DNA of 21,789 nucleotides. It comes from a virus. Position numbers and translations under genes: made by a program. Location of the stretch: UHGV virus genome UHGV-1607642. The stretch is one strand, 5' to 3'. Positions 1 to 12,588 of the stretch are shown piece after piece (positions within the stretch are counted from its first letter, which is position 1; each line of letters begins with the position of its first letter). The notes under the pieces were generated by a model. It was not told where the DNA came from. It worked only from the letters and a program-made list of their open reading frames with translations, and did not search any database.

Positions 1-184
1 AATCAAGAGTTTTTTTGTTCGGGAATGAAAAATTTTATTCAATAAAAATCAAAGTCTTAGAAATAAAATGCATTTTCTCGAAGGTGTTGCCTAAATAAAT
101 TCTCTATTCAGCCAATCACCCTTATATATTTAAATTGGAATCGAGTTTGTGGGAAATAAATATAACGGGAAGTGACGAATAAAA

Positions 185-210
185 TAATAACCGGACTTAG
201 CCGGTTATTA
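185..210 (-). terminator. Putative intrinsic terminator closing the leftward operon
   Basis: Inverted repeat TAATAACCGG / CCGGTTATTA (10-bp stem, 6-nt loop) 11 nt downstream of the stop at 222; on the minus strand it is followed by TTTTATT. Confidence 0.5.
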
Positions 211-221
211 CCCTTATAGAT

Positions 222-749
222 TTAAAACGGTAAAATCCGTTCGACCCAATCGAACATGGCGACTGTCTTCCTACCGTCCCCCATGTTGAGTGTGACCTGA
301 CAAGCGTCAACGCCTGAAGACACCCCCTCAATTTCACGGCCATCCGCCATGTAGACCCTTATAGACTTCTGCATCTCATGGGCCTGGCGACAAATTTTGA
401 AGAAATCACGGCGAGATGGCCGATTGTCCACATAGTCTGGGTGTATCGTTGTCCGACCCGTGAAGTCGTGTGCAATGCCTTCTGTCACACCTGATTCAAT
501 CGTGCTGATTCGCTCAAGTGGGAGCCTTATACGATTATCTTTGTCGAACGGGGCAGGGCAAAGGTCGACCTTGTTGCGTGACGACATGAGACCCTGAACA
601 TACATGCAGAACACCTGACCATCTTCCATCGTGACCCTTACAGGAATAAGAGACTTGCGCCAGAACATCAGCGCTTTCTCCACGTTGGTGTAATCGCGCG
701 GCCAGACTTCTGCAGGAATCCCGTAGGTGATGTCAGTAATATTCGTCAT
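222..749 (-). CDS. Hypothetical protein with a triplicated h-x-h-x-M-x-D-G motif (about 175 aa)
   Basis: Long ORF in the six-frame track (222..791). Start placed at ATG 749 (MTNITD...), 5 nt from the lipoprotein stop, rather than ATG 791; neither has a clear SD, so the start is uncertain. No recognisable catalytic motif. Confidence 0.45.
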   Translation of the reverse strand: MTNITDITYGIPAEVWPRDYTNVEKALMFWRKSLIPVRVTMEDGQVFCMYVQGLMSSRNKVDLCPAPFDKDNRIRLPLERISTIESGVTEGIAHDFTGRTTIHPDYVDNRPSRRDFFKICRQAHEMQKSIRVYMADGREIEGVSSGVDACQVTLNMGDGRKTVAMFDWVERILPF

Positions 750-753
750 ATCG

Positions 754-1176
754 TCACAGTGTCGTTGGTAAGATATCGATGTCACCAGCATTACTGGTGA
801 ACACCCGGAAGACTTTCGTCTCGCCAGCTTTGGTAATCGTCTCGCGTTCCTGACGAGCAGGATTCAGTGCGCACAGCCCAGCGTCTTCGAGTGAGGCGCC
901 AACAATCCATTCTCCGGCATCCAGATGAAAAGTGACTTTTTCACCTGTTTCCAGTTTTGCAACGGTTTCGCCATTGATGAAGATCGATGCGTCGCAACCG
1001 GCGCCCACCATGCTTTTATCTCTCATAACCACCAGCGTCGATGCCGCCGGAGATTGGTATTTGAATATTCTGGTCTGCGGTGCTGGCTTTGCCTCAGAGA
1101 CAGGAATAGGACGAGATTGACATGCAGTGATAAGTAACGCGGAGGCAGCAACCAGAGGAAGTAATACGTGTTTCAT
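754..1176 (-). CDS. Putative lipoprotein (signal peptide plus lipobox), function unknown
   Basis: Start chosen at MKHVLLPLVAASALLITAC: short positive n-region, hydrophobic h-region and lipobox I-T-A-C. The track's longer N-terminal extension (to 1212) is probably not translated. Confidence 0.6.
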   Translation of the reverse strand: MKHVLLPLVAASALLITACQSRPIPVSEAKPAPQTRIFKYQSPAASTLVVMRDKSMVGAGCDASIFINGETVAKLETGEKVTFHLDAGEWIVGASLEDAGLCALNPARQERETITKAGETKVFRVFTSNAGDIDILPTTL

Positions 1177-1210
1177 TGTGCCGAACAAAATCCTTATCTT
1201 TACGAAAATC

Positions 1211-1230
1211 ATGGCGCCTCAAGGCGCCAT
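1211..1230 (-). terminator. Hairpin (possible attenuator or internal terminator) between the 92-aa gene and the lipoprotein gene
   Basis: ATGGCGCC tcaa GGCGCCAT, GC-rich 8-bp stem; on the minus strand it is followed by GATTTTCG (short U-tract). Confidence 0.35.
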
Positions 1231-1235
1231 AATGC

Positions 1236-1514
1236 TCAATCGAGGCGTTTTAGAATATCGGCCAGATCTTCTTTGGTCATACCCGAGTTTTCGTAAATCT
1301 TCATGACCTTTTCACGAGCCTTTGCAGTAGTCTCTAATGACGTAGCTATCTTATCAAAATCACCCATCGTCATATTGGACAGCACCAGATTGATGATGTC
1401 TGCCTTTGACAGTTTTATGCTGCGTTCACGCAGTCGATTCTGAAAGGTCTCTAGTTTATCGTTTGCTTTTTCGGTTAACTTAACCTGGCAGTTAATAGCG
1501 CGTTTCTCGCTCAT
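1236..1514 (-). CDS. Small hypothetical protein (92 aa), possibly a DNA-binding (RHH-like) regulator
   Basis: ORF starts 2 nt after the helicase stop (translational coupling). N-terminal strand-helix-helix-like pattern; assignment is weak. Confidence 0.45.
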   Translation of the reverse strand: MSEKRAINCQVKLTEKANDKLETFQNRLRERSIKLSKADIINLVLSNMTMGDFDKIATSLETTAKAREKVMKIYENSGMTKEDLADILKRLD

Positions 1515-1516
1515 GC

Positions 1517-3076
1517 TTACTCTCTATCCAAAACAGTGAAATCGAATGTGCTGCCAACCGGCAAGACCCCCTCGGCAAACCCAGGCGTCGTGTCGATAAT
1601 GTGTTTCCGCTCATATGAATGCGACATGAGGTATTTGTTGCTCACGTCGATGAAGTCGGTAATAAAGCACACGTTAGCCTGATTTTTCTTGGCTCGTAAG
1701 CCACGACCGACACGCTGTCTCATTTCAACTTCTGCTTTCCCGCCACCACCCAGAATCACCGCGCCTACGCTTGGAACGTCGACACCAACATCCAGAATGG
1801 TTGAACCAATGAGAACATCTATCTTGCCTGCCGCCAGACTATTAAGTTTTGCTTGTCGGGTAGTCTGGTTTGATTCTCCGTAGATGAAATCGACCTTGAG
1901 GCCACTCTCTTTCATCATTTCCATCAAGATCTGACCATGACGCTTCAGACGAACCAATGTCATACAGTTCAGACCGTGACTCTTGTACATTAGCGCTTCA
2001 CGCACAATAGCTTCGTTGCGGCCCAGATTATAGACGATGCCTAACTGATAGGCTTTCTGGTAAGCCGTGCTCATTCCAACCCGAAAATTCAGGTGTTTTG
2101 AAGCAAGTTCGGCTCTAATCCGCGCCTCATCTGGAGTGTACGCGATTTTATGATATAAAAAGTATGGTTTCGCTAAAATACCTCTGTCGATCAAATATTT
2201 CTCCGTTACTTTTATCTCGATGCGACCCGCAACGGCCATGAGACGCATATTTGCTTCAGTCGAGTCCTTCATGAACGGCGTAGCTGTCAGCGCCAGACGG
2301 TAGTCGGCATTGATGCACAACCGGGCGATGTCGTAGAAGTTAGAACCAGATGATTCGTGTGCCTCTTCCAGAATCAGCAGAGAAACGCTGGACAGGAAGC
2401 GTTTAACCAGTTCCCGGCGCTTCAGGTGGTACTGTTTTTTCTCCGGTGATGCGTCGCGCGGTGGCTCTTCGAGAAAACTGGCCAGGGTCTGCACCGTGGC
2501 AACGTTGATATGGCGCGAGACCTGGAACTCACCCGATCCAATCACCCCAACTCTCTGACCTTTCAGCCACGGCTCGCCATTCTCCGCGCGGTAGTCGATG
2601 GATTTCTGGAAGTTCTCTGCCATCTGGAACATCAGAACCGATCGCGTGGTTAAAAACAGCGTCATACGACCAATGCGAGCAGCAGCCTTACACGCTACGT
2701 TCGATTTACCGCCACCCGTCGCAATCTGGGCAATCATCATCCCTTCGCGCACCAGTGTTTCCACTGTCTGATCCTGATACGCATAGTCCGGGTTATACGG
2801 GAATGGGTTAACTACCGGGTTCGGCTTGCCCAGCGCGGGAGCTTTTTCCTTGCGCACATGCACGCATTTGATGCCAGCTTTCAGAAGGTTGGCTGCAACT
2901 GGCTTCGCAAACCCAGCCGGGAACGCGTTTTTGCTCCAGTTGAACATCGTGCTGGTTCCTTTCCAGTCCCCAGCCTCCACTTCATAGCTCAACATCTCCT
3001 GAACGAGCCGCTTCACGTTGTCATCAGCGCTAGAAATCAGCGCATTGACTGCATTCGATACAATCCGAACTGTCAT
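1517..3076 (-). CDS. SF2 DExH-box helicase family protein (519 aa)
   Basis: Motif I ATGGGKS (Walker A), motif II LILEEAHESSG (DExH), motif III LTATP, motif VI QRVGRGLR, all read directly from the translation. SD AGGAAAGAGG upstream of ATG 3076. Confidence 0.85.
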   Translation of the reverse strand: MTVRIVSNAVNALISSADDNVKRLVQEMLSYEVEAGDWKGTSTMFNWSKNAFPAGFAKPVAANLLKAGIKCVHVRKEKAPALGKPNPVVNPFPYNPDYAYQDQTVETLVREGMMIAQIATGGGKSNVACKAAARIGRMTLFLTTRSVLMFQMAENFQKSIDYRAENGEPWLKGQRVGVIGSGEFQVSRHINVATVQTLASFLEEPPRDASPEKKQYHLKRRELVKRFLSSVSLLILEEAHESSGSNFYDIARLCINADYRLALTATPFMKDSTEANMRLMAVAGRIEIKVTEKYLIDRGILAKPYFLYHKIAYTPDEARIRAELASKHLNFRVGMSTAYQKAYQLGIVYNLGRNEAIVREALMYKSHGLNCMTLVRLKRHGQILMEMMKESGLKVDFIYGESNQTTRQAKLNSLAAGKIDVLIGSTILDVGVDVPSVGAVILGGGGKAEVEMRQRVGRGLRAKKNQANVCFITDFIDVSNKYLMSHSYERKHIIDTTPGFAEGVLPVGSTFDFTVLDRE

Positions 3077-3122
3077 AAACCTCTTTCCTTCGTGCCTTTT
3101 GTATGGTAATTGGCTATTATGG

Positions 3123-3140
3123 TAAGTAAGTACTTATACA
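3123..3140. repeat. Degenerate copy of the TAAGTA-N6-TACTTA element (contains perfect 10-bp palindrome TAAGTACTTA, 3127-3136)
   Basis: TAAGTAAGTACTTATACA sits in the 64-bp divergent intergenic region and abuts ATG 3141. Confidence 0.5.
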
Positions 3141-3839
3141 ATGGATTGTATCAGAATTATGGGTGTGAAAATTACGATTCTGCAGGTGGAAGTCGCGAAC
3201 CTGCGTCCGAATCCCTGGAATACCAACTCCGTTGGGGCGCAAAACTTCGAAAAACTGAAAGGCTCTATCGAAAAATTGGGCTTTTTTAAGCCAATTCTGG
3301 CGCGGGAGTTGGACGGGGGCATTTTTGAGATCCTCGGTGGTGAACACCGCTGGCGTGCCGCGATGGAGCAGGGCATTTCAACGGTTCCCGTCATCTCCGT
3401 GGGCAAAATTAACGATCTGGTGGCCAAACAGATTTCCCTCGTCGACAACGAGCGCTACGGCGAAGACGATCAGGTCGCTTTGCAGCGCTTAATCGAAGAA
3501 ATCCAGTCTGAAATCGACTACCGGTTGTCCGATATCGCCCCGTATGACGACGAAATGGCGGCAACACTCGCCAAAGCGTCCGTTACCGATCTTGAAGCGC
3601 TGGAAGCGCTCTCCCGTGGCGATGACGAGCCGGTCGATGAGGACAAACGCGAGAAAACCGAGCGAGTCGGCGCTGAACACCAGACGATGCGCTTCAAGGT
3701 GACGTTTGATGCGTCAGATCGCGTCGCCGACACCATCAAAACCATCATCAAAGAGCAGGGAATCAATACCGGTAACGAAATGGAGAACGCCGGGGAAGCC
3801 CTGGTGTGGCTGGTCGACTACTACAAGGAGCGTATGTAA
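3141..3839 (+). CDS. ParB/Srx-like N-terminal domain protein 1 (232 aa)
   Basis: ParB-type motif FEILGGEHRWRAAMEQG followed by an acidic C-terminal half. No clear SD; start could also be ATG 3159. Confidence 0.7.
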   Translation: MDCIRIMGVKITILQVEVANLRPNPWNTNSVGAQNFEKLKGSIEKLGFFKPILARELDGGIFEILGGEHRWRAAMEQGISTVPVISVGKINDLVAKQISLVDNERYGEDDQVALQRLIEEIQSEIDYRLSDIAPYDDEMAATLAKASVTDLEALEALSRGDDEPVDEDKREKTERVGAEHQTMRFKVTFDASDRVADTIKTIIKEQGINTGNEMENAGEALVWLVDYYKERM

Positions 3840-4507
3840 TGACCAAAAACTTTGAAATCGTCTATCGAAACCCGGCAGAACTCATCCCGTATGAGATGAA
3901 CGCCAAAAAACATGACGAACAGCAGATCCGCGATCTGGCGGCCGCCATCAAAAAGCGCGGTTTTGACCAGCCGATCACGGTCGACAAGCACGACGTCATC
4001 ATTACTGGCCACGGTCGTCGCGAGGCGGCTCTTCTGGCTGGTCTGGAGCGTGTGCCGGTCATTGTTCGCGACGATCTGAGCGAAGAAGAAGTGAAGGCTA
4101 AGCGTCTGGAAGACAACCGCCTGGCCAGTATTGACTACGACGCCATCAAATTGCAGCAGGAACTGGAATCCCTGGTGCTGGGCGATGTCGAGGTCTTCGG
4201 TTTTGAAGAGCGCGAGCTGAACGTGCTTGTCGGCAGCATGACCGAAGAGATGGAAACCGGCTCTCTGGTGCTCGATCTGGGCGAAGAGACGGAGCGCCAG
4301 AAGGAAGAGCACACCGAGATCAGTCGCGAAGTGGCCTCTGAAGAAGTCCGCGTCATCGACGTATTGGGCTTTAAAACGCTCCCTGCTGGCTCTGCCATTG
4401 TGGTTGGGGATTTGCTTGCCCACATGGAAGAAATCACGGGAGAGAGCGGGGTAGACGCTTTCGTGGCGTATGCGGAGAAAGTTTCTTCTGGGGAGCTGGC
4501 CGCATGA
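3839..4507 (+). CDS. ParB/Srx-like N-terminal domain protein 2 (222 aa)
   Basis: ParB-type motif VIITGHGRREAALLAG with acidic C-terminal half. ATG overlaps the upstream TAA by 1 nt (ATGTAATGA); the track ORF begins further upstream at a non-ATG codon. Confidence 0.7.
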   Translation: MTKNFEIVYRNPAELIPYEMNAKKHDEQQIRDLAAAIKKRGFDQPITVDKHDVIITGHGRREAALLAGLERVPVIVRDDLSEEEVKAKRLEDNRLASIDYDAIKLQQELESLVLGDVEVFGFEERELNVLVGSMTEEMETGSLVLDLGEETERQKEEHTEISREVASEEVRVIDVLGFKTLPAGSAIVVGDLLAHMEEITGESGVDAFVAYAEKVSSGELAA

Positions 4508-5142
4508 GCAAATACACCATCAACGTATCGTTTCAGACCCGCGTGAACAAAACCACGCGCACGCTGGAGATTGCCGAATCGTTCGGTCTTGGCCTGGACG
4601 AAAAAGAGTGGACGCTTTACGACAATCTGGAGCTGGAAGTGAAGCAGGGCGATGTGGTGTACATCACCGGCCAATCCGGTTCCGGTAAATCCGTTGTGCT
4701 GCGCGAGCTGCAACGCCAGATGAAGGATGAAGGGCTTTCTGTAGCCTCCATCGATGACTTTGCCTTCGACAATGAGGTTAACGTCATTGACCAGCTGGGC
4801 AAAACCACCAGCGAAGCGCTGGGGCTGCTGTCTATGGCCGGATTGAATGACGCCTATCTCTTTGTGCGTAAGCCATCCGAGATGTCTGACGGCCAGAAAT
4901 ACCGTCTCAAGATCGCCAAGCTGATCGAGTCCGGCGCGAAAGTCTGGGCTGCCGACGAATTTGGCGCTGTTCTCGACCGTGTAACCGCCCAGGTTGTGGC
5001 GTCGAACCTCCAGCGTGCCGCCCGTAAGGTTGGTGCGACGGTAATGGTGGCGACGACCCACGAAGACCTGAAGAACGCGCTGCGCCCGGATATGCAGATC
5101 ACCAAGCACTACAAAGAACGCGTGAAGGTGGAATATGCCTGA
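4504..5142 (+). CDS. Minimal ABC-type ATPase (212 aa, nucleotide-binding domain only)
   Basis: Walker A GQSGSGKS, signature-like SDGQKYR, Walker B VWAADEF, D-loop GAVLD, H-loop ATTHED. Start overlaps the upstream stop (ATGA); SD GGGAG upstream. No transmembrane partner gene. Confidence 0.75.
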   Translation: MSKYTINVSFQTRVNKTTRTLEIAESFGLGLDEKEWTLYDNLELEVKQGDVVYITGQSGSGKSVVLRELQRQMKDEGLSVASIDDFAFDNEVNVIDQLGKTTSEALGLLSMAGLNDAYLFVRKPSEMSDGQKYRLKIAKLIESGAKVWAADEFGAVLDRVTAQVVASNLQRAARKVGATVMVATTHEDLKNALRPDMQITKHYKERVKVEYA

Positions 5143-5389
5143 TTTGAAGATCGTAGAGCTGAAGCCATCGAAAGAGGCTGACAACAACAACGTTGAAGTC
5201 ATCCGCCTGCTGGAAGAAGCACTCCAGTACGCCAGAGAAGGCAAAAGCCAGAGCCTGGCACTGCTGATGATCAACAACGACGGCAGTGTGCTGGATTGCT
5301 GGCATAACGGTGGGCGTCCATACGTCATGGTTGGGGCGATGGAATCGCTTCGCCTGGACTTCATCAATGCCAATATCGAGCGTAGGTGA
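5135..5389 (+). CDS. Small hypothetical protein (84 aa)
   Basis: ORF overlaps the ATPase stop by 8 nt; SD AAGGTGG upstream. No recognisable motif. Confidence 0.5.
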   Translation: MPDLKIVELKPSKEADNNNVEVIRLLEEALQYAREGKSQSLALLMINNDGSVLDCWHNGGRPYVMVGAMESLRLDFINANIERR

Positions 5390-5394
5390 TCGAC

Positions 5395-6285
5395 ATGACA
5401 GGCATCATCATCAAACGCTACCGCCCGGAAGAGTTCCCGCGTCATCTGGACTTTCTGGAGCGTATGACCGTTACCAAAGGCACGGTTGAAGACTGGCACG
5501 CGCTGAAGTCGCTGCACTACAAGACGGATGGTAAGCCGTTCGCGCCAACGTATTATCGCTGCGAACTGGACGACCGGCTGGTGGGCGTCGTGGTTATGGC
5601 TTACCCGAAACTGCTGCTGGCGCCTCGCCATCGCATGTTTCCTAAGCTGAAGCCAACCACCAATACCACCGTGGCCAACCAGTATTGGGGCCGGTACGTG
5701 AACAACAACTTTGCCGTGATCAGCCGTTCCGTTGTTGACACTCAGTACCGCGGTGTCGGCGTCTCCTATCGAATGATTAACCTGGTTAGCAGGATGCACG
5801 ACCGGCCAATCATCGAGATCCAGTCGTCGATGAGCAAATACAACCCGTTCGCCATGAAAGCAGGGTTCCAGTTCATCCGTCAGGAGCGTCCGAAGAGCTA
5901 TGAGAGTGCGTTGCGCGTCTTCCAGCGTCATTTCCGTTCCGACCCTGGCGACAACGAAGCGATCGTCAAAGAGCTGTTTGCCATGAGTGAGTCTCGCCGT
6001 CGTCGTGCGCTGCGTGATCTGGTCGCTGACTACCACAAGAACAGTTCCCTGGCCAAAGCCGGGCGTAATCGTGGCACGACGATTCAGGACATTGCCGACA
6101 GCCTGGTGGACGAGGCCAGCATCGTGAAGCTGCTCAAGGACATTCACAACCTGAGCTTCACGTCTCCGCTGTATGGCGTGTACCGAAACCCGGACTTTGG
6201 TCGTCAGCTGCCGGACACGCTGCCACTGCTGGCATTCGACAAACAGCCTTTGAATAAACCTCTTGAAATTGCATTACCGGCATAA
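5395..6285 (+). CDS. Hypothetical protein with a GNAT-like acetyltransferase motif (about 296 aa)
   Basis: Start at ATG 5395 with SD AGGTGA 6 nt upstream. Segment AVISRSVVDTQYRGVGVSYRMINL fits the GNAT motif A (R/Q-x-x-G-x-G/A), read by eye; the ~130-aa C-terminal extension is unassigned. Confidence 0.5.
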   Translation: MTGIIIKRYRPEEFPRHLDFLERMTVTKGTVEDWHALKSLHYKTDGKPFAPTYYRCELDDRLVGVVVMAYPKLLLAPRHRMFPKLKPTTNTTVANQYWGRYVNNNFAVISRSVVDTQYRGVGVSYRMINLVSRMHDRPIIEIQSSMSKYNPFAMKAGFQFIRQERPKSYESALRVFQRHFRSDPGDNEAIVKELFAMSESRRRRALRDLVADYHKNSSLAKAGRNRGTTIQDIADSLVDEASIVKLLKDIHNLSFTSPLYGVYRNPDFGRQLPDTLPLLAFDKQPLNKPLEIALPA

Positions 6286-6294
6286 GGATTTGCC

Positions 6295-6561
6295 ATGACG
6301 TTGACCGACAAACAAAAAGACATCATCAAAACCATCAATTTAGGCCATGAGCGTGGGCATCTGCTCGATCTGGACGAGCTGCTTGAAGTGCTGCCGTACA
6401 AAACGACCAAACAGAGTATGCAGTTCTCTATCCGCGCACTGGTGAAAAAGGGGCTGGTGGAGAAAGGAATGTGCCGCCAGCGCGGTGATTCCGGCTACCA
6501 CCGTCGCACGCTGGGACTGACCACGTTAGGTCGTGCCAGAGCCAAATTACTGGTGATGTAA
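6295..6561 (+). CDS. Small winged-helix-like DNA-binding protein (88 aa)
   Basis: ORF with SD AAGGA. Size and basic C-terminal half suggest an HTH/wH regulator; the fold assignment is an inference. Confidence 0.45.
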   Translation: MTLTDKQKDIIKTINLGHERGHLLDLDELLEVLPYKTTKQSMQFSIRALVKKGLVEKGMCRQRGDSGYHRRTLGLTTLGRARAKLLVM

Positions 6562-6586
6562 GTCGGTCTGGGAGCCAGTTTGAGAG

Positions 6587-6641
6587 CCTGCTTCCGTATA
6601 TATAAATACTAAGTGACTTATTAAATATATACGGAAGCAGG
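6587..6641. promoter_or_regulatory. Large perfect inverted repeat (17-bp arms, 21-nt spacer) with a nested TAAGTgACTTA palindrome
   Basis: CCTGCTTCCGTATATAT ... ATATATACGGAAGCAGG. The spacer contains TAAGTGACTTA (6610-6620). No flanking T-tract, so it is not a typical intrinsic terminator. Confidence 0.6.
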
Positions 6642-6756
6642 TTCTGAATACTCCCCAGCCCGGTTTTAAACACCCAGAAAACAAATTGGTTAGGCACTGA
6701 ATTAAACAAGTTGTTTAGGAGCGCAAGGATGCGCTCTGAGTGTTTTAGAGGGATCT

Positions 6757-7398
6757 ATGACTGTAGAAAAAGACGAGAGCAAAACTCGCCTGACACCAGC
6801 TGAGTGGGCAGAAGCCGAAGCGAAGTGGACTTCCGGCGAATACACACTCTCCAGGCTGGAGGAAGAGTACGGCATTCGTCGTGAAACGCTCTCCAGACAT
6901 TTCAAAAAGCGTGGATTAGAGAAAGGCGCGGACTCCGTTGGGAAGATGGTGCGCGAGTCGCTCAAATCCGACGCAGAGCTGCGTGCGAAGGCGCGTGCAG
7001 AGAAAATCGAAGAGCGCCGGACTCGTTACGACGATTGGGCGTTCGCACTCGGTCGTATGGTGATGCATGAGGTGGCCACAGCCAAGAAGGACGGCAGGCC
7101 ACTGGCAGCCATCGAAGATGACCTGAAGAGTCTCCAGCGTGCCAGCGGCACACTCGCTAAGTGCTTCGAAATATCGTCGAAAGCGCTCGGTATGGATCGC
7201 GTGGAGAACGAGGACGACGAAATCCCGAACCTGGTATTTGGCGAACTTACGCCTTCCCAGGTGGCGCAGCTGCGTAAGGAAGATGATGAGCCGGATCTGA
7301 TTGATGACGATCTGCTTGAGTCACTCGAAGAGGAAGCACTGAGCGAAGCTGAGGGCGATTCTGAAGCGTCTGGTGATGAAAGTGATGGGAGCGTCTGA
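6757..7398 (+). CDS. Terminase small subunit (213 aa)
   Basis: Sits immediately upstream of the large terminase. N-terminal HTH-like segment YTLSRLEEEYGIRRETLSRHF and strongly acidic C-terminus. SD AGAGGGA upstream. Confidence 0.7.
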   Translation: MTVEKDESKTRLTPAEWAEAEAKWTSGEYTLSRLEEEYGIRRETLSRHFKKRGLEKGADSVGKMVRESLKSDAELRAKARAEKIEERRTRYDDWAFALGRMVMHEVATAKKDGRPLAAIEDDLKSLQRASGTLAKCFEISSKALGMDRVENEDDEIPNLVFGELTPSQVAQLRKEDDEPDLIDDDLLESLEEEALSEAEGDSEASGDESDGSV

Positions 7399-7400
7399 CT

Positions 7401-8657
7401 ATGGCCATCCCGTCGTCTCTGAGTCTCGTACAGCTGCATTCTGGGCAGATGCAAGTCTTCCAGTCGCCACATCGTTTCAAAGTGGTGTGTGCGGGTCGAC
7501 GCTGGGGTAAATCCCGGTTGTCGATCTCCACCATCATCCGCGCGGCAGCCAAAGAGAAGAAGCAACGTGTCTGGTATGTCGCACCGACTTACCAGATGGC
7601 TCGCCAGATCTTGTGGGATGACCTGCAGGAAGTTCTGCCGCGCAAATGGGTTCGTAAGAAAAACGACACCACGATGACCATCGTGCTGAAGAACGGCTCT
7701 GAAATCGCGCTGAAAGGTGCGGATAAGCCCGATACGCTTCGTGGTGTGGCACTGCACTTTGTGGTGCTCGATGAATTTCAGGATATGAAGCCTGACACCT
7801 GGTACAAGGTACTGCGTCCGACACTGTCCTCCACCCGTGGCGGTGCGCTGATCATCGGTACGCCAAAAGGCTTCTCCGAGTTCCACAAGCTGTGGACTAT
7901 CGGTCAGAACAAAGATTTGCAACGCAAGGGGCAGTGGAAGAGCTGGCAGTTCGTTACGGCCGATTCTCCGTTCGTACCGAGCGCGGAAATCGAAGCAGCG
8001 AAGAACGATATGGACCCTAAATCGTTCGCACAGGAATACCTGGCCAGCTTCGAAAACATGTCCGGACGCGTTTACTACCCGTTCGACCGCAATGTGCATG
8101 TGAAGCCACTCCAGTTCAATCCGAAACTGCCGATCTGGGTTGGTCAGGACTTCAACATCGACCCTATGTCATCGGTCATCCTGCAACCGCAGCCAAATGG
8201 TGAACTGTGGGCTGTGGACGAATTGGTGTTGTTCTCTTCTAACACGGCTGAAGTGTGTGACGAGCTGGAGCGTCGATACTGGCGCTGGAAATCTCAGGTC
8301 ACTATCTTTCCTGACCCGGCAGGTGCGTATCGCCAGCACGCACGCGGCGAATCTGACGTCGACATCTTCAAAGAGAAAGGTTTCCTTCGAGTCGACTATC
8401 CGAAGAAACACCCACCGATCGCAGACCGTGTGAACGCCGTGAACCGCATGTTAATGAGCGCCTCGGGCGAAACACGGTTGTACGTCGATCCGAAGTGCAA
8501 ACACTTAATCGACTCACTGGGGAAGGTGATCTACAAGCCAGGCTCACGCGATATGGATAAGACAGGCGGCGTCGAGCACAGTGCGGATGCGTTGGGGTAT
8601 CCGGTTCATCGTAGGTATCCAGTGAAAAATCGTGTTATTCTTGGTGGATCCAGATAA
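7401..8657 (+). CDS. Terminase large subunit (418 aa)
   Basis: Walker A VVCAGRRWGKS and Walker B HFVVLDEF in the N-terminal ATPase; C-terminal nuclease-like acidic motifs (WVGQDFN, IFPDPAG, HSADALG). SD GGGAG upstream. Confidence 0.9.
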   Translation: MAIPSSLSLVQLHSGQMQVFQSPHRFKVVCAGRRWGKSRLSISTIIRAAAKEKKQRVWYVAPTYQMARQILWDDLQEVLPRKWVRKKNDTTMTIVLKNGSEIALKGADKPDTLRGVALHFVVLDEFQDMKPDTWYKVLRPTLSSTRGGALIIGTPKGFSEFHKLWTIGQNKDLQRKGQWKSWQFVTADSPFVPSAEIEAAKNDMDPKSFAQEYLASFENMSGRVYYPFDRNVHVKPLQFNPKLPIWVGQDFNIDPMSSVILQPQPNGELWAVDELVLFSSNTAEVCDELERRYWRWKSQVTIFPDPAGAYRQHARGESDVDIFKEKGFLRVDYPKKHPPIADRVNAVNRMLMSASGETRLYVDPKCKHLIDSLGKVIYKPGSRDMDKTGGVEHSADALGYPVHRRYPVKNRVILGGSR

Positions 8658-8672
8658 GTAAGTACTTACTTA
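8655..8672. repeat. Perfect 18-bp palindrome TAAGTAAGTACTTACTTA (TAAGTA-N6-TACTTA element)
   Basis: Self-complementary over all 18 nt; it contains the TerL stop codon and lies just upstream of the portal start. Confidence 0.8.
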
Positions 8673-8674
8673 AC

Positions 8675-10264
8675 ATGGAAGAAAGGCAAATGGAATTGAC
8701 TGATAAGCAAATCAAAGACCTTGTGGCACGACGCCACCCTGAATATGAGAAGAAAAAAGAACATTGGGACTTCCTCGCCAGCACCTACGCTGGCGGGCGT
8801 GCCTGGTTCAACGACAATATCTTCCGTTACTTCAAAGAGGGCGATCAGGAGTTCAAAGAGCGCCTGGAACGCGCTTATCGCTTCAACCATACGCGCGAAG
8901 TGGTAAACCTCATCAACAAATACCTCTTCAAAGAGGTCATTCACCGCAACACTGATGAAGCACCGGAGCAGATCCGCAATTTCTGGAAGCGAGCCACGCG
9001 CCAGAACGCCTCCATCGATGCGTTTATGGCGGCTATCGATCTGCAATCATCCATTTATGGCCGTATTTGGGTTGTCGTGGATAGCACGATGAACGTCGAT
9101 GTTGAGTCTGTTGCAGACGAGAAGAAAAATGATGCGCGTGCCTACGCTTACTGGATTTCGCCACAGCAGCTGCTTGATGTTGCCTGGGATGAAGATGGCA
9201 ATATGTTGTGGGCGTTGATTGTTGAAATCGCGCGCGACGACGAAGATCCGTTCACATCAACCGGGCAGGAATACCAGCGTTACCGTCTGTGGACGCAAAA
9301 CGAGTGGTATCTGTTCCGTGAAGAAGTGAAGAAAGGTTCAGGGAATAGTGGTCGTCGTCAGGCCAAAGTCGTTCTGGAGGATAGTGGCAATCATAATCTT
9401 GGGGTGGTGCCGGTGTTTCCGGTGGATTGCATTGGTGAAAGCGATTCTCCGTATTTTAGCCCGTCGTTAATTGACGATATCGCCTATCTTGACCGCGCCG
9501 TGGCCAACTACCTGTCGAACCTTGACGCGATTATTCAGGATCAGACATTCAGCCAGTTAGCGATTCCGGTTCAGTCCTTGCTGCCGGGCGATGAAAACCA
9601 CACCAAAGTGCTCGAAATGGGGACAAAACGTGTCTTCACCTTCGATTCTGAGAGCGGTAATCAGCCATTCTATCTGTCTCCAGACCCGAAACAGGCTCAG
9701 ATGATCATCACCACGATTAAGACGGTGATTAATGAGATCTACCATTCCGTTGGTGTGGCTGGTGAGCGAACCAAGCAGGATAACGCGCAGGGTATCGACA
9801 ACTCTTCGGGGGCAGCGAAGATGTACGACTTCCAACGTATTAACAGTCTGTTGGTGACAAAAGCAGAGCGCCTCGAAAGGGCAGAACGCCAAATGATGGA
9901 GTTGGCTGCGAAATGGATGGGCATCGAATTGGATGAAGACCACTCTCTGATCGCTTACCCGGAGAGTTTCGATATTCGTGGTCTGACTGACGAATTTGCC
10001 GTCGCTGAGAAATTGTCGCTGTTACAGGCGCCTGATTCTGTACGTCGTCATCAGATGGAAATGCTCATAGAAAAGATCTTCCCGAATATTTCCGAAGCGA
10101 TGCAAAAGGAATTTAAAAAAGATCTCTTGAAATTTCCTCTAAAAAATGCTCCTGGCGCCCTTGAAAATAAGTCAGTACTTACTTATGATCGAGATACAGT
10201 CCAAGAAAGCGGACAAGATCAACCCCGAGGGAATGGGGACTCATCTACTCAAGAGACCGAGTGA
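8675..10264 (+). CDS. Portal protein (about 525-529 aa)
   Basis: Large ORF directly after TerL and before the scaffold and capsid genes; assigned by position and size. Start ambiguous: ATG 8675 has no SD, ATG 8690 has AAAGG 3 nt upstream. Confidence 0.7.
   Translation: MEERQMELTDKQIKDLVARRHPEYEKKKEHWDFLASTYAGGRAWFNDNIFRYFKEGDQEFKERLERAYRFNHTREVVNLINKYLFKEVIHRNTDEAPEQIRNFWKRATRQNASIDAFMAAIDLQSSIYGRIWVVVDSTMNVDVESVADEKKNDARAYAYWISPQQLLDVAWDEDGNMLWALIVEIARDDEDPFTSTGQEYQRYRLWTQNEWYLFREEVKKGSGNSGRRQAKVVLEDSGNHNLGVVPVFPVDCIGESDSPYFSPSLIDDIAYLDRAVANYLSNLDAIIQDQTFSQLAIPVQSLLPGDENHTKVLEMGTKRVFTFDSESGNQPFYLSPDPKQAQMIITTIKTVINEIYHSVGVAGERTKQDNAQGIDNSSGAAKMYDFQRINSLLVTKAERLERAERQMMELAAKWMGIELDEDHSLIAYPESFDIRGLTDEFAVAEKLSLLQAPDSVRRHQMEMLIEKIFPNISEAMQKEFKKDLLKFPLKNAPGALENKSVLTYDRDTVQESGQDQPRGNGDSSTQETE
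10168..10185. repeat. TAAGTC-AGTACT-TACTTA element copy (1 mismatch) inside the 3' end of the portal ORF
   Basis: TAAGTCAGTACTTACTTA lies 79 nt upstream of the portal stop codon. Confidence 0.6.
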
Positions 10265-10286
10265 TAAGTAACGAAAAGGTATTTCT

Positions 10287-11183
10287 ATGAATCTGTGGCA
10301 AATGCTTATGGCCCGTCGTGGCCTGATGGATGTAGCCGAAGCGCATGAGCGCGGCGGCGCTGGTGGCGGTGCTCCTGCTGGAGACAATGAGCAGAGCATT
10401 CAAGACCCAGGCAAACAGGGCGAGCAAAAAGAGCAACCGAAGGGTGACGACGACGAGTATGCCGGTATGACTCAGGAAGAGTTGCTGGCAGAACTGCGTA
10501 AGTCTAAGAAAGCCGGTGCTGATCTGTTGAAAGAGAACATGAAGCGTAAGGAGAAAGAGCGCACATTGGCCGATCAGCTGGCTCAGTACGGTGATATTGA
10601 CCCGACGCGTGCTCGTCAGCTTCTCGAAGCTGAACAAGCCGCAGAAACCGCACGTCGGGAGGCGGAGCAGGCTGAACTGGAACGTCGTGGTGAGTTCGAT
10701 GCTGTGAAAAAGCAGATGATCGAAGCACACCAGACTGAACTGGCACAGCGCGACGAACGCTACTCCGCTCTGGAGAGCGAGAACGCCGCATTGAAGGCTC
10801 AACTGGTCGAAATGACTGTTGGTGTTTCCTTCAGCAGTTCTGCTTTCCTGCGTGACAAAGTTCTGATGACTCCGGCTAAGGCACGCGTTATCTACGGCTC
10901 TCATTTCGAAGTGGGTGAAGACGGTAGTGTTGTGGGCTTTGATAAGCCAGCCGGTCAGAAAGAACGTGCAGTTCTGGTTGACGGTGAAGGCAAGCCGTTA
11001 CCGTTCGAATCCGCGATTGAGCGCATTCTGCGTGCAGATCCGGAAGCTGACGCACTGTTGCGTAGCGAAGCCAAGCAGGGTGCTGGTTCCAATAGCAAAC
11101 CGACCCACAAAGTAAGCCAGCCGAAGAGCAAGTCGACTATGGATAAGTTGACCTCCGGTCTGGGAAAAATCGGACTCAAGTAA
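10287..11183 (+). CDS. Scaffolding protein (298 aa)
   Basis: Sits between portal and major capsid genes. Charged, Ala/Glu/Gln/Arg-rich helical sequence typical of scaffolds. SD AAAAGG upstream. Confidence 0.65.
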   Translation: MNLWQMLMARRGLMDVAEAHERGGAGGGAPAGDNEQSIQDPGKQGEQKEQPKGDDDEYAGMTQEELLAELRKSKKAGADLLKENMKRKEKERTLADQLAQYGDIDPTRARQLLEAEQAAETARREAEQAELERRGEFDAVKKQMIEAHQTELAQRDERYSALESENAALKAQLVEMTVGVSFSSSAFLRDKVLMTPAKARVIYGSHFEVGEDGSVVGFDKPAGQKERAVLVDGEGKPLPFESAIERILRADPEADALLRSEAKQGAGSNSKPTHKVSQPKSKSTMDKLTSGLGKIGLK

Positions 11184-11209
11184 CATCTTAAATCATAGGG
11201 AAATGAAAG

Positions 11210-12085
11210 ATGCCATTACTGCGTGATGAAGCTGAAAAGCTGTCTAATAACGAACTTGAGCAGGGTGTGATCGAGACCATCATCGATCGCGATGACCTGT
11301 TCGCTATTCTGCCTTTCATGAAGATTAATTCTAAGGCATACCTTTACAACCGCGAAGCTACCCTGAGCGAAGCTACCTTCATTGATGTGAACGACACCAT
11401 CACTGAAGGCGCAGCAACCTTCAGCGAACACGTTGCGAAGCTACGTATCCTGGCAGGCGACGTAGACGTCGACAAATTCCTGGCGACCACTATGTCCGAC
11501 ACCAACAACCAGCTGGCAATCCAGGTTCGTCAGAAGGTGAAAGGTCTGGCTCGCGCATTCCGCCGCAACCTGATTCTGGGCGACTCCAGCACCAACACCA
11601 AAGCGTTCGACGGTATTCCGAAACTGATGCACGACGATCAGAAGATCGACATCGAAGGCGCTTCCATGACCTTCTCCATGTTCGACGAACTGGTCGACGC
11701 GGTGAAAGATCTGGGTGCGGACTGCATCATGATGCGCTCCGAGCATCTGCGTGCTTATCGCGCTCTGCTGCGTACCGTTAATATCGGCCCGTCCGAAATT
11801 ATGATGGAAAACTTCGGTCGACCGATGTTGTGCCACAACGGTGTACCTTTCATCGTGAACGACTTCATCCCGACTGACGCGGGCAAAGCAAGCATCTATT
11901 GTCTGCACCTGTCCGAAGAGAACGGTGTGACCGGTCTGTATGGCGGTGAAAACGCTGGTATCGTTGTTGAGAACATCGGTACTGTTCAGAACAAAGACGC
12001 AACCCGTACCCGCGTTAAGTGGTACTGCTCTCTGGCGAACAAGCACGACAAAGCTATCGCCGCGCTGACCAATGTAAAAATTTGA
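11210..12085 (+). CDS. Major capsid protein (291 aa)
   Basis: Assigned by position after the scaffold, by size, and by the strong intrinsic terminator that follows. SD GGGAAATGAAAG upstream. Confidence 0.7.
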   Translation: MPLLRDEAEKLSNNELEQGVIETIIDRDDLFAILPFMKINSKAYLYNREATLSEATFIDVNDTITEGAATFSEHVAKLRILAGDVDVDKFLATTMSDTNNQLAIQVRQKVKGLARAFRRNLILGDSSTNTKAFDGIPKLMHDDQKIDIEGASMTFSMFDELVDAVKDLGADCIMMRSEHLRAYRALLRTVNIGPSEIMMENFGRPMLCHNGVPFIVNDFIPTDAGKASIYCLHLSEENGVTGLYGGENAGIVVENIGTVQNKDATRTRVKWYCSLANKHDKAIAALTNVKI

Positions 12086-12098
12086 TCAGAATACTAGG

Positions 12099-12116
12099 TA
12101 AGTAGTTATCTACTTA
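12099..12116. repeat. TAAGTA-GTTATC-TACTTA element copy
   Basis: Arms TAAGTA and TACTTA with 6-nt spacer, between the capsid stop and the terminator. Confidence 0.7.
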
Positions 12117-12120
12117 ATAT

Positions 12121-12146
12121 GGGTGGGCTATACGCCCACCTTTTTT
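12121..12146 (+). terminator. Intrinsic terminator after the major capsid gene
   Basis: GGGTGGGC tatac GCCCACC followed by TTTTTT. Confidence 0.75.
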
Positions 12147-12159
12147 GTAGGAGCGATAA

Positions 12160-12588
12160 ATGCCAGAACAAAAGATGAAAATCATGGAGGAGACGTTTGC
12201 GGATTTCACAGGGCATATGTGCCGTGCCGGATTCACCAACTCCGTCTCCAACGAGCCTCTGAGCGAGCGCCAGCAGAACCATCTTGCGGCTTGCTTCCGG
12301 ACAGTTCCGTTCACGCAGTCTGTCAGCGTGGAGTCTGTTGCTCTGACTCCTGATTCTGTCTCTGTTGAGAAGGGGAAGTCAGTCAAATTGCGAGTTGATG
12401 TGCAACCGTCAAACGCAACCAATCAAAAAGTCACCTGGACTTCTCAAAATAGCGACAAAGCGACCGTGGATCAGAACGGTAACGTAGTTGGCGTAGCCGT
12501 TGGTACGGCAACCATTGAAGTGGCTTCACATGATGGCAGTCACAAAGCGACTGCGACCGTTGAAGTGACCGCAGCACCGGCTGCGTAA
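12160..12588 (+). CDS. Big_2 (bacterial Ig-like) domain protein, likely capsid decoration protein (142 aa)
   Basis: C-terminal ~85 aa show the Big_2 pattern (KVTWTSQNSDKATVDQNGNVVGVAVGTATIEV). SD AGGAG 8 nt upstream of the ATG. Confidence 0.65.
   Translation: MPEQKMKIMEETFADFTGHMCRAGFTNSVSNEPLSERQQNHLAACFRTVPFTQSVSVESVALTPDSVSVEKGKSVKLRVDVQPSNATNQKVTWTSQNSDKATVDQNGNVVGVAVGTATIEVASHDGSHKATATVEVTAAPAA

Follow-up and report, generated by a model that had tools for sequence, protein, structure and literature searches.

The locus

At the left end of the viral sequence UHGV-1607642, a stretch of 21,789 nucleotides (nt) that is here called the window, two adjacent genes encode a lipoprotein of 140 amino acids and, after it, a protein of 175 amino acids which, judged by its sequence, is a full-length member of the FljA family of flagellin repressors. 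What might such a protein be doing on an element that, as set out below, brings with it no flagellin gene? Over bases 1-3200 the window shows 100% identity to pEC21Z137-115K, an IncFIB, non-mobilizable plasmid of E. coli (NZ_CP101235.1), and over bases 1-1600 its identity to Salmonella phage SSU5 is 93.9%; in the remainder are genes for terminase, portal, capsid and tail. On the strength of this near-identity and of those genes, the window is identified from its sequence as part of an SSU5-like phage-plasmid of E. coli. The lipoprotein and FljA-like genes lie at the end of a leftward gene string, on the minus strand, that diverges from ParB-like genes, and whose features from right to left are as follows.

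1517..3076, minus strand: DEAD/DEAH-box helicase of 519 amino acids (Pfam DEAD, ResIII and Helicase_C), the first gene of the leftward string
1236..1514, minus strand: gene for a 92-amino-acid protein (PHROG 1466), upstream of a cargo slot
1208..1233, minus strand: hairpin rich in G+C and with a short U-tract, which bounds the cargo slot on the left and probably serves as a partial terminator or attenuator
754..1176, minus strand: predicted lipoprotein of 140 amino acids (lipobox and PHROG 890)
222..749, minus strand: orphan FljA-family protein of 175 amino acids (PF03614 and PHROG 1444)
178..214, minus strand: intrinsic-terminator-like hairpin (10-bp stem 185-210) followed by UUUUAUU, 8 nt past the FljA-like stop codon
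1..177, minus strand: A+T-rich conserved region, a candidate regulatory region, 5' of the next gene, whose 216-amino-acid protein starts outside the window

An earlier reading of this DNA from its letters and open reading frames (the sequence-only reading, below) had seen the gene pair as bracketed by hairpins, and both are where it placed them. It went on to propose that the pair is a moron-like unit of a lipoprotein and an anonymous repeat protein, and it is with the second of these that the present account departs furthest from it.

A full-length member of the FljA family

The 175-residue protein matches PF03614 (Flag1_repress) with an E-value of 1.5e-95 and 318.3 bits, against a cut-off of 24 bits, its residues 6-172 lying on positions 1-170 of the 170 in the profile. 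It also matches PHROG 1444 and is collinear by BLASTP with Salmonella FljA over 169 amino acids at 33% identity (E 1e-33). Among 20 family members 12 columns are invariant, and the blocks that are invariant or nearly so, DITYGxxAExWPRDY, PSRRDFF, IRVYMxDG and FDWVxRI, are common to canonical FljA, so that 'anonymous' no longer applies. The family assignment was already known: the GenBank copy in SSU5 is a 'putative repressor of phase 1 flagellin' and that of pHCM2 is named 'repressor of fliC'. The family is small: clustering at 50% leaves it 26 representatives among 1.84 billion proteins; the repeat-rich proteins P0101 and P0106-P0108, which came up in the representative search at E 1e-4 to 1e-7, were judged spurious, their own repeats driving the match. 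Orthologues occupy the same position in SSU5 (SSU5_121, 97.7% identical), pMT1 of Y. pestis (96%), phage Cyrano (CYRAN_114, 77%) and pHCM2 of S. Typhi CT18 (63%). Beside these the window gene is one more member, and it is the content of the cargo slot that varies.

Salmonella FljA, which is encoded in the fljBA operon and represses the phase-1 flagellin FliC, has 179 amino acids to the 175 here and shares both the full-length PF03614 match and the conserved blocks. In contrast to it, the window gene has no partner flagellin, invertible promoter or Hin recombinase nearby, and stands on a phage-plasmid backbone beside helicase and ParB-like genes, including in elements from hosts without flagella. 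A tblastn search of the 115,200-bp element with E. coli FliC gave a best E of 8.8 and no flagellin gene is annotated on it; neither is a recombinase or inverted-repeat switch annotated beside the gene in SSU5, pEC21Z137-115K or Cyrano. The FljA-like protein is thus an orphan, with no flagellin partner on its element.

Silencers of fliC borne by mobile elements have precedents. Like FljA itself, FljA(z66), from the linear S. Typhi plasmid pBSSB1, and FlkB, from the flk islet of E. coli, act post-transcriptionally to silence the chromosomal fliC (PMC2652032; PMC3378880), fliC mRNA being present while FliC protein is absent (PMC2652032). Unlike the window gene, the genes for both are co-transcribed with that for a replacement flagellin, fljB(z66) or flkA, and both proteins belong to the canonical clade (FljA(z66) is 67% identical to LT2 FljA; PMC2652032), whereas the window protein is in a separate deep clade. 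As to what happens when the partner is missing, a strain with fljA(z66) that lacks fljB(z66) has no flagellin and is non-motile, and plasmid pBSSB2 turns motile E. coli non-motile (PMC2652032). By analogy, non-motility without a partner flagellin would be the phenotype expected of an orphan FljA.

A predicted tandem Hfq-like fold

The sequence-only reading had drawn attention to three copies of an h-x-h-x-M-x-D-G motif in the second protein and suggested a repeated small beta-rich module. All three are present (VRVTMEDG at 37, IRVYMADG at 130 and VTLNMGDG at 152), and none of 200,000 residue shuffles yielded three. Only copies 1 and 2 are conserved family-wide, each forming the first strand and turn of one of two modules in tandem, while copy 3 is lineage-specific, other members having VTLSVGDG, VTMRVGEQ or VGVRKSNG there. 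The AlphaFold2 model, made from a 20-sequence alignment (predicted local distance difference test, pLDDT, 85.4; predicted template modelling score, pTM, 0.83), has two modules, each of a helix and five strands: helix 21-32 with strands within 37-86, and helix 117-125 with strands within 129-174. As just copies 1 and 2 are conserved, and each opens one module, the protein as modelled is a two-module tandem rather than a three-copy repeat; the repeated beta-rich module is there in the prediction. A true internal sequence repeat was considered and rejected, since only 19 columns aligned when module 1 was set against module 2 by hhalign, at a probability of 13.6%: the duplication is seen in the fold, and in the sequence at the first strand only.

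An N-terminal helix followed by five strongly bent beta-strands is what distinguishes the Sm/Hfq-like fold; the model has this arrangement, and Hfq provided its best fold matches. Profile matches in the PDB were to archaeal Hfq-like proteins only, over residues 125-161, and non-significant (E 0.68-0.77), and the Pfam LSM/Hfq families gave no match. What it would share with Hfq and Sm/LSm proteins is a post-transcriptional role; there is no significant sequence similarity and, unlike them, the FljA-like chain holds two modules and an extra conserved N-terminal segment of 20 residues, the latter modelled at low confidence. From the model, and by analogy with the FljA proteins that have been studied experimentally, we infer a tandem Sm/Hfq-like RNA-binding post-transcriptional repressor. 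A link of FljA to the Sm/Hfq fold was not found in the papers returned by a full-text search.

A backbone gene, also in elements of hosts without flagella

By tblastn the FljA-like gene is on 831 PLSDB plasmids, among them pHCM2 (S. Typhi), pMT1 (Y. pestis) and pLF82 (adherent-invasive E. coli). Because its counts per genus nearly equal those of the phage-plasmid major capsid gene (341 and 340, respectively, in Klebsiella, 229 and 200 in Escherichia, 92 and 91 in Enterobacter, 62 and 62 in Yersinia, 60 and 49 in Salmonella, and 27 and 25 in Citrobacter), it is a conserved backbone gene of this phage-plasmid group. Acinetobacter relatives have the capsid gene and lack the FljA-like one. The distant Klebsiella phage-plasmid pCAVP366-109, with the same gene order and a helicase 71.5% identical to that of the window, keeps a 34%-identical FljA-like copy in the same position (tblastn), as does the contig encoding protein P0088. 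The order helicase, small gene, optional cargo, FljA-like gene thereby persists in another deep clade of phage-plasmids, where FljA-like identity is as low as 34-45%; the unrooted tree of the family has three deep clades, two of them phage-plasmid-borne.

Members of that second clade (locus L049 of our comparison, 5001-5537, which is from pCAVP366-109, and L048, 3378-3917), at 34-45% identity to the window protein, lack the N-terminal EVWPRDY block, with AESERNLAS or VEKERDLDK in its place, and keep the motifs of the C-terminal module. The block is common to the main phage-plasmid clade and canonical FljA, and by its distribution may mark a function limited to the main clade and chromosomal FljA.

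Comparison of the copies from E. coli, SSU5 and Klebsiella gives, for the FljA-like gene, a ratio of non-synonymous to synonymous substitution rates (dN/dS) of 0.08-0.12, indicating purifying selection. Within the Klebsiella-type clade, defined by a match in architecture and sequence to K. pneumoniae plasmid p205880-4, 21 polymorphic codons are synonymous only and 10 are non-synonymous. K. pneumoniae is without flagella and Y. pestis is non-motile. As the gene is kept in elements of such hosts, a role confined to flagellin fails to explain its retention.

Expression from the plasmid-prophage

The plasmid pLF82 of E. coli LF82, an adherent-invasive strain, is phage Cyrano (OV696614, 108,379 bp), whose FljA-like gene is CYRAN_114. 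The RNA-seq values in S1 Table of PMC9928086, themselves a reanalysis, cover stationary lysogeny broth (LB), Dulbecco's modified Eagle's medium (DMEM) and THP1 macrophages at 1 and 6 h. In log2(FPKM+5), FPKM being fragments per kilobase per million, CYRAN_114 reads 4.16/4.19 in LB, 6.9-7.4 in DMEM and 8.0-8.1 in macrophages (PMC9928086), which amounts to induction by some 8- to 16-fold in the latter two conditions. Genes for terminase, capsid and tail proteins are at about 3-4 in LB, DMEM and macrophages at 1 h, with a few rising at 6 h (e.g., capsid, at 7.4-7.8), and Cyrano RepA reads log2 7.4-8.3. In stationary LB CYRAN_114 and its neighbour CYRAN_115 are below the 5-fold cut-off that the authors of that study used for morons, though for CYRAN_114 this is so in that condition only. 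In Cyrano, then, the FljA homologue is transcribed from the plasmid-prophage, and in a condition-dependent manner.

Two further sources of evidence on flagellin in carriers were set aside: the fliC mRNA levels in the LF82 data, the column order being unclear and FljA acting post-transcriptionally, and S. Tennessee carriers as a sign of flagellin expression, serotyping there being molecular.

The lipoprotein as exchangeable cargo

That the first protein of the pair is a lipoprotein with a lipobox signal peptide is borne out as far as its sequence can tell. The precursor begins MKHVLLPLVAASALLITA and then Cys19, in the lipobox VAASALLITA-C with predicted cleavage at LLITA-C, and has the features of the PROSITE-type lipobox rule, namely Cys19, Lys2 in the n-region and a hydrophobic region free of charged residues; Gln is at +2 after the lipobox Cys. 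Cys19, Cys61 and Cys102 are invariant across 14 homologues. Since the lipobox and the three invariant cysteines fit such a fate, the protein is probably exported and disulfide-bonded. It matches PHROG 890 'lipoprotein' (E 1.8e-52), and DUF2846 (PF11008) below threshold (19.9 bits against a 34.3-bit cut-off), and only 3 of the 14 homologues match DUF2846 at E 0.01 or better. In the AlphaFold2 model, which is all-beta (pLDDT 71.6), the mature body of about 121 residues would be a generic, transthyretin-like beta-sandwich. A PDB sequence search gave no relative, a search of the BFVD viral folds gave none at E 0.001 or better and did not list Cor, Llp or Bor, and NCBIfam and PADLOC searches matched neither the lipoprotein nor the FljA-like protein.

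The lipoprotein gene is on 418 PLSDB plasmids compared with the 831 of its neighbour; the 52 sampled matches from Klebsiella have about 51% identity and come from plasmids of some 53-73 kb. In 41 related loci that were compared, the slot between the 92-amino-acid gene and the FljA-like gene has at least five forms, of 370, 490, 653, 786 and about 1800-1900 nt, and homology between forms stops exactly at the FljA-like start codon. The lipoprotein thus behaves like accessory cargo in a variable slot. In Cyrano that slot holds two other genes, including CYRAN_115, which is on the opposite strand (L047, 4101-4901) and encodes an unrelated 266-amino-acid 'putative membrane lipoprotein'; its RNA-seq signal, log2 4.7-5.0 in stationary LB, reaches 7.9-9.4 when the cells are in DMEM or macrophages.

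The lipoprotein cassette itself appears to be exchanged. Its synonymous divergence (dS) is 0.74-0.86 and that of the flanking genes 0.13-0.35, a difference of 3-5-fold. In the comparison of window 754-1176 with L010, L012, L016, L019 and L020, the alleles are about 17% apart in amino acids where the flanking helicase and FljA-like genes are 96-99% identical, with dS 0.74-0.86 for the lipoprotein against 0.13-0.28 for the helicase and FljA-like genes. The hairpin after the 92-amino-acid gene recurs with a different sequence for each allele of the cassette. This, together with dS far above that of the flanks, indicates in the sequences a cassette-like exchange of alleles by recombination. Is the divergence then a mark of an arms race? 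Positive selection on the lipoprotein was ruled out, dN/dS being about 0.12 (0.11-0.16 in all comparisons with enough differences), which is purifying selection.

A second variable slot lies directly downstream of the FljA-like gene (L002, 4535-4834; also L024, L022, L034 and L045). In several lineages, Klebsiella-type loci included, it holds an extra open reading frame of about 100 codons whose product has a signal-peptide-like N-terminus (e.g., MKIVAALTFLTFIFSSSAFS), and with the insert the distance between the genes grows twofold, from about 320 nt to about 630. The conserved FljA-like gene thus has slots for exported proteins on both sides.

Hairpins and transcription

The G+C-rich hairpin with its short U-tract, noted at 1211-1230 by the sequence-only reading, is present, and its extended stem (1208-1233) begins one base past the stop codon of the 92-amino-acid gene. 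It folds at -20.4 kcal/mol (z = -4.1), a value equalled by 1 of 200 shuffles, and UUUUCG follows. Downstream, the 10-bp stem at 185-210 is followed by UUUUAUU, the 56-nt stretch folding at -15.3 kcal/mol (z = -3.7), and the hairpin is kept 3' of the FljA-like gene in most related loci, among them L003, L008, L010, L023, L036, L037, L039 and Cyrano. It had been called a strong terminator: the hairpin is there and conserved, while termination, by this hairpin as by the upstream one, is what shape and position suggest. Neither came up in a simple scan for terminators, and nothing in the window matched Rfam. In Cyrano, which has no comparable hairpin after the gene homologous to the 92-amino-acid one, the RNA-seq signal falls about 16-fold past it.

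Only 4 nt separate the lipoprotein stop codon from the FljA-like start codon in this lineage (the junction reads TGACGATATG), and the FljA-like gene here has neither a ribosome-binding site nor a promoter to itself. Because of this spacing the two genes are probably expressed together and translationally coupled here. A promoter scan found no sigma-70-like promoter between the upstream hairpin and the lipoprotein start codon. The pair may be fed by attenuated read-through of the helicase and 92-amino-acid gene transcript, which is active in Cyrano lysogeny. In Cyrano-type loci the FljA-like gene has an upstream region of its own that contains a TATAAT box and, as ribosome-binding site, AAGGTAG.

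Beyond the terminator-like hairpin of the FljA-like gene, window 1-177 has a G+C content of 0.299 and sequence blocks conserved across 14 loci from all the phage-plasmid clades, among them AATATATAAGG, ATTTATTTAGGSAACACCTTCGA and TTTTATTTCTAAGACTTTGA; Klebsiella phages match this stretch alone, at about 80% identity. Just past the window edge a TTGATT-N17-GATAAT promoter-like pair is followed by a leader of about 75 nt and the conserved 216-amino-acid gene. With its continuation (L008, 3529-3850), the region looks like an operator and promoter region.

Neighbouring genes and other cargo

The helicase (UvsW in the Cyrano annotation) matches PADLOC PbeA models with a best E of 1.8e-22, and is transcribed in LF82 lysogens at log2 7.2-8.4 outside stationary LB. 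The 92-amino-acid protein, which has a weak match to the repressor family PHROG 4268 (E 0.0012), may be a small regulator; CYRAN_117, the homologue in Cyrano, is a published lysogeny-expressed gene, 12-fold above background in LF82. Outside the window, pEC21Z137-115K has a four-gene island (SNF2-related protein, DUF4391 protein, DNA methyltransferase and DEAD/DEAH helicase; 3254-12300 in that element's locus, L005) that looks like a restriction or defence system, and a yehD-type chaperone-usher fimbrial operon as cargo (35557-40366 in the same locus). Fimbrial cargo and a putative flagellin repressor on one element recall the reciprocal control of adhesion and motility.

Which RNA?

The mechanism that would follow from the homology is readily set out. 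The first gene's product would be exported, lipidated at Cys19 and sorted to the outer membrane, as exchangeable cargo. That of the second, to go by its predicted fold and by FljA, would be a tandem Sm/Hfq-like protein that binds an mRNA leader and blocks its translation, with host fliC mRNA as the most likely target by homology. Its expression would be conditional, through read-through of the upstream hairpin and translational coupling to the lipoprotein gene, and expression from the plasmid-prophage would lower host flagellin with no replacement flagellin supplied. Taken as a whole, the view that the FljA-like protein represses post-transcriptionally, with host flagellin mRNA as its main target, has, by analogy with FljA, about an even chance of being right.

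What weighs against it? The gene is intact in about 340 Klebsiella and 62 Yersinia plasmids, in numbers that track those of the capsid gene, and purifying selection persists inside the Klebsiella-type clade (the 21 and 10 codons above). Identity to the FljA proteins that have been tested is just 33%, and no publication on RNA binding or motility was found for any phage-plasmid copy. Furthermore, LF82, which carries Cyrano, has long FliC filaments and out-swims K-12 in LB soft agar (PMC10809763). The conditions of that motility study and of the RNA-seq study were different, and the protein may have no silencing effect on E. coli fliC or may exert one only where induced, e.g., in DMEM or macrophages.

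Several of these same points favour a different role, possible if on the whole doubtful, in which the protein is a housekeeping riboregulator of the phage-plasmid, the main RNA target being an element or host transcript other than flagellin mRNA (maintenance, replication and the lysis-lysogeny decision are examples of what it might serve), with flagellin repression absent or incidental. A core gene whose counts match those of capsid, non-flagellated Klebsiella included, whose position is conserved down to 34-45% identity in a second deep clade, which is under purifying selection within the Klebsiella-type clade, and which is transcribed in lysogeny alongside replication and partition genes is what such a role leads one to expect, and a motile LF82 lysogen fits with it too. 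However, the Acinetobacter relatives do without the gene, and in the main phage-plasmid clade the most conserved surface motifs are common to canonical FljA, which suggests the same ligand. Moreover, neither a sequence like the fliC leader nor another candidate operator was found on the element. With blastn-short, the region upstream of E. coli K-12 fliC gave chance matches of 10-15 nt to the 115-kb element, none near the locus; the initiation region of the gene downstream of the FljA-like one came 8th when the fliC leader was locally aligned to all 120 translation-initiation regions, and was equalled by 233 of 2000 shuffles; and the region of the 216-amino-acid gene, 1-177 and beyond, has no significant similarity to the fliC leader.

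A broader version concerns the ancestry of the family. Two of its three deep branches are phage-plasmid-borne and its members in Klebsiella elements are under purifying selection, and on that basis it is conceivable, though unlikely, that at its root the FljA family is a phage-plasmid riboregulator, a tandem Hfq-like protein with which all SSU5-like phage-plasmids of enterobacteria control an RNA beyond or besides flagellin mRNA, with chromosomal fljA and flkB, the genes of flagellar phase variation, a domesticated offshoot. The RNA could be the element's own transcript or a host transcript common to flagellated and non-flagellated hosts.

The proposal of the sequence-only reading, that the pair is one envelope moron blocking receptors in the manner of Cor and Llp or conferring serum resistance in that of Bor, now seems improbable, even though the lipoprotein half has much to recommend it. 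The protein looks genuine, is probably exported and disulfide-bonded, and is encoded by variable cargo on which selection is purifying (dN/dS about 0.12); the other lipoprotein in the Cyrano slot is expressed in lysogeny, and the two genes are tightly spaced. Like Cor (phi80, N15), Llp (T5) and Bor (lambda), it is a small phage-encoded accessory lipoprotein with a predicted outer-membrane location. But it is larger than any of these, and in Pfam, PHROGs, PADLOC and the predicted fold, a generic beta-sandwich, no likeness to them or to a defence model was found. Nor are the genes co-inherited (418 and 831 plasmids), and the second protein would be cytoplasmic with an RNA-binding fold. The base composition of both genes is ordinary, with a G+C content of 0.51 in each as in the whole window, and shows no sign of a foreign origin. 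'Moron-like' therefore suits the lipoprotein, as an accessory gene in a slot with at least five contents, and does not suit the FljA-like gene, which tracks the capsid gene. If there is a host-fitness factor in the pair, control of flagellin by the FljA homologue is more likely to be it than receptor blocking by the lipoprotein. Finally, a DNA-binding or ligand-sensing transcriptional regulator, though it is as 'transcriptional regulator' that RefSeq/NCBI annotates the FljA-like protein, is very hard to credit, with no helix-turn-helix or other DNA-binding domain in the Pfam search or the model, with Hfq as the best fold match, and with tested FljA homologues acting after transcription, fliC mRNA being present without the protein (PMC2652032).

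What carriage may mean for the host

SSU5-like phage-plasmids are common in clinical Enterobacterales. While the assignment of their FljA-like protein to its family is old, what deserves following is the question that arises from the carriage in Klebsiella, from the motility of the LF82 lysogen and from the tandem Hfq-like fold in the prediction. If flagellin is indeed silenced, carriers would differ in motility, in H-antigen expression, in how susceptible they are to phages that depend on the flagellum and in how TLR5 and NLRC4 recognise them, and the conditions in which the Cyrano copy is induced are those where hiding flagellin would help the host bacterium. If it is not, there would be a second RNA target for the FljA family, to be sought in Klebsiella lysogens. 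Either way, the predicted tandem Hfq-like fold would provide a structural rationale for mRNA binding by FljA.

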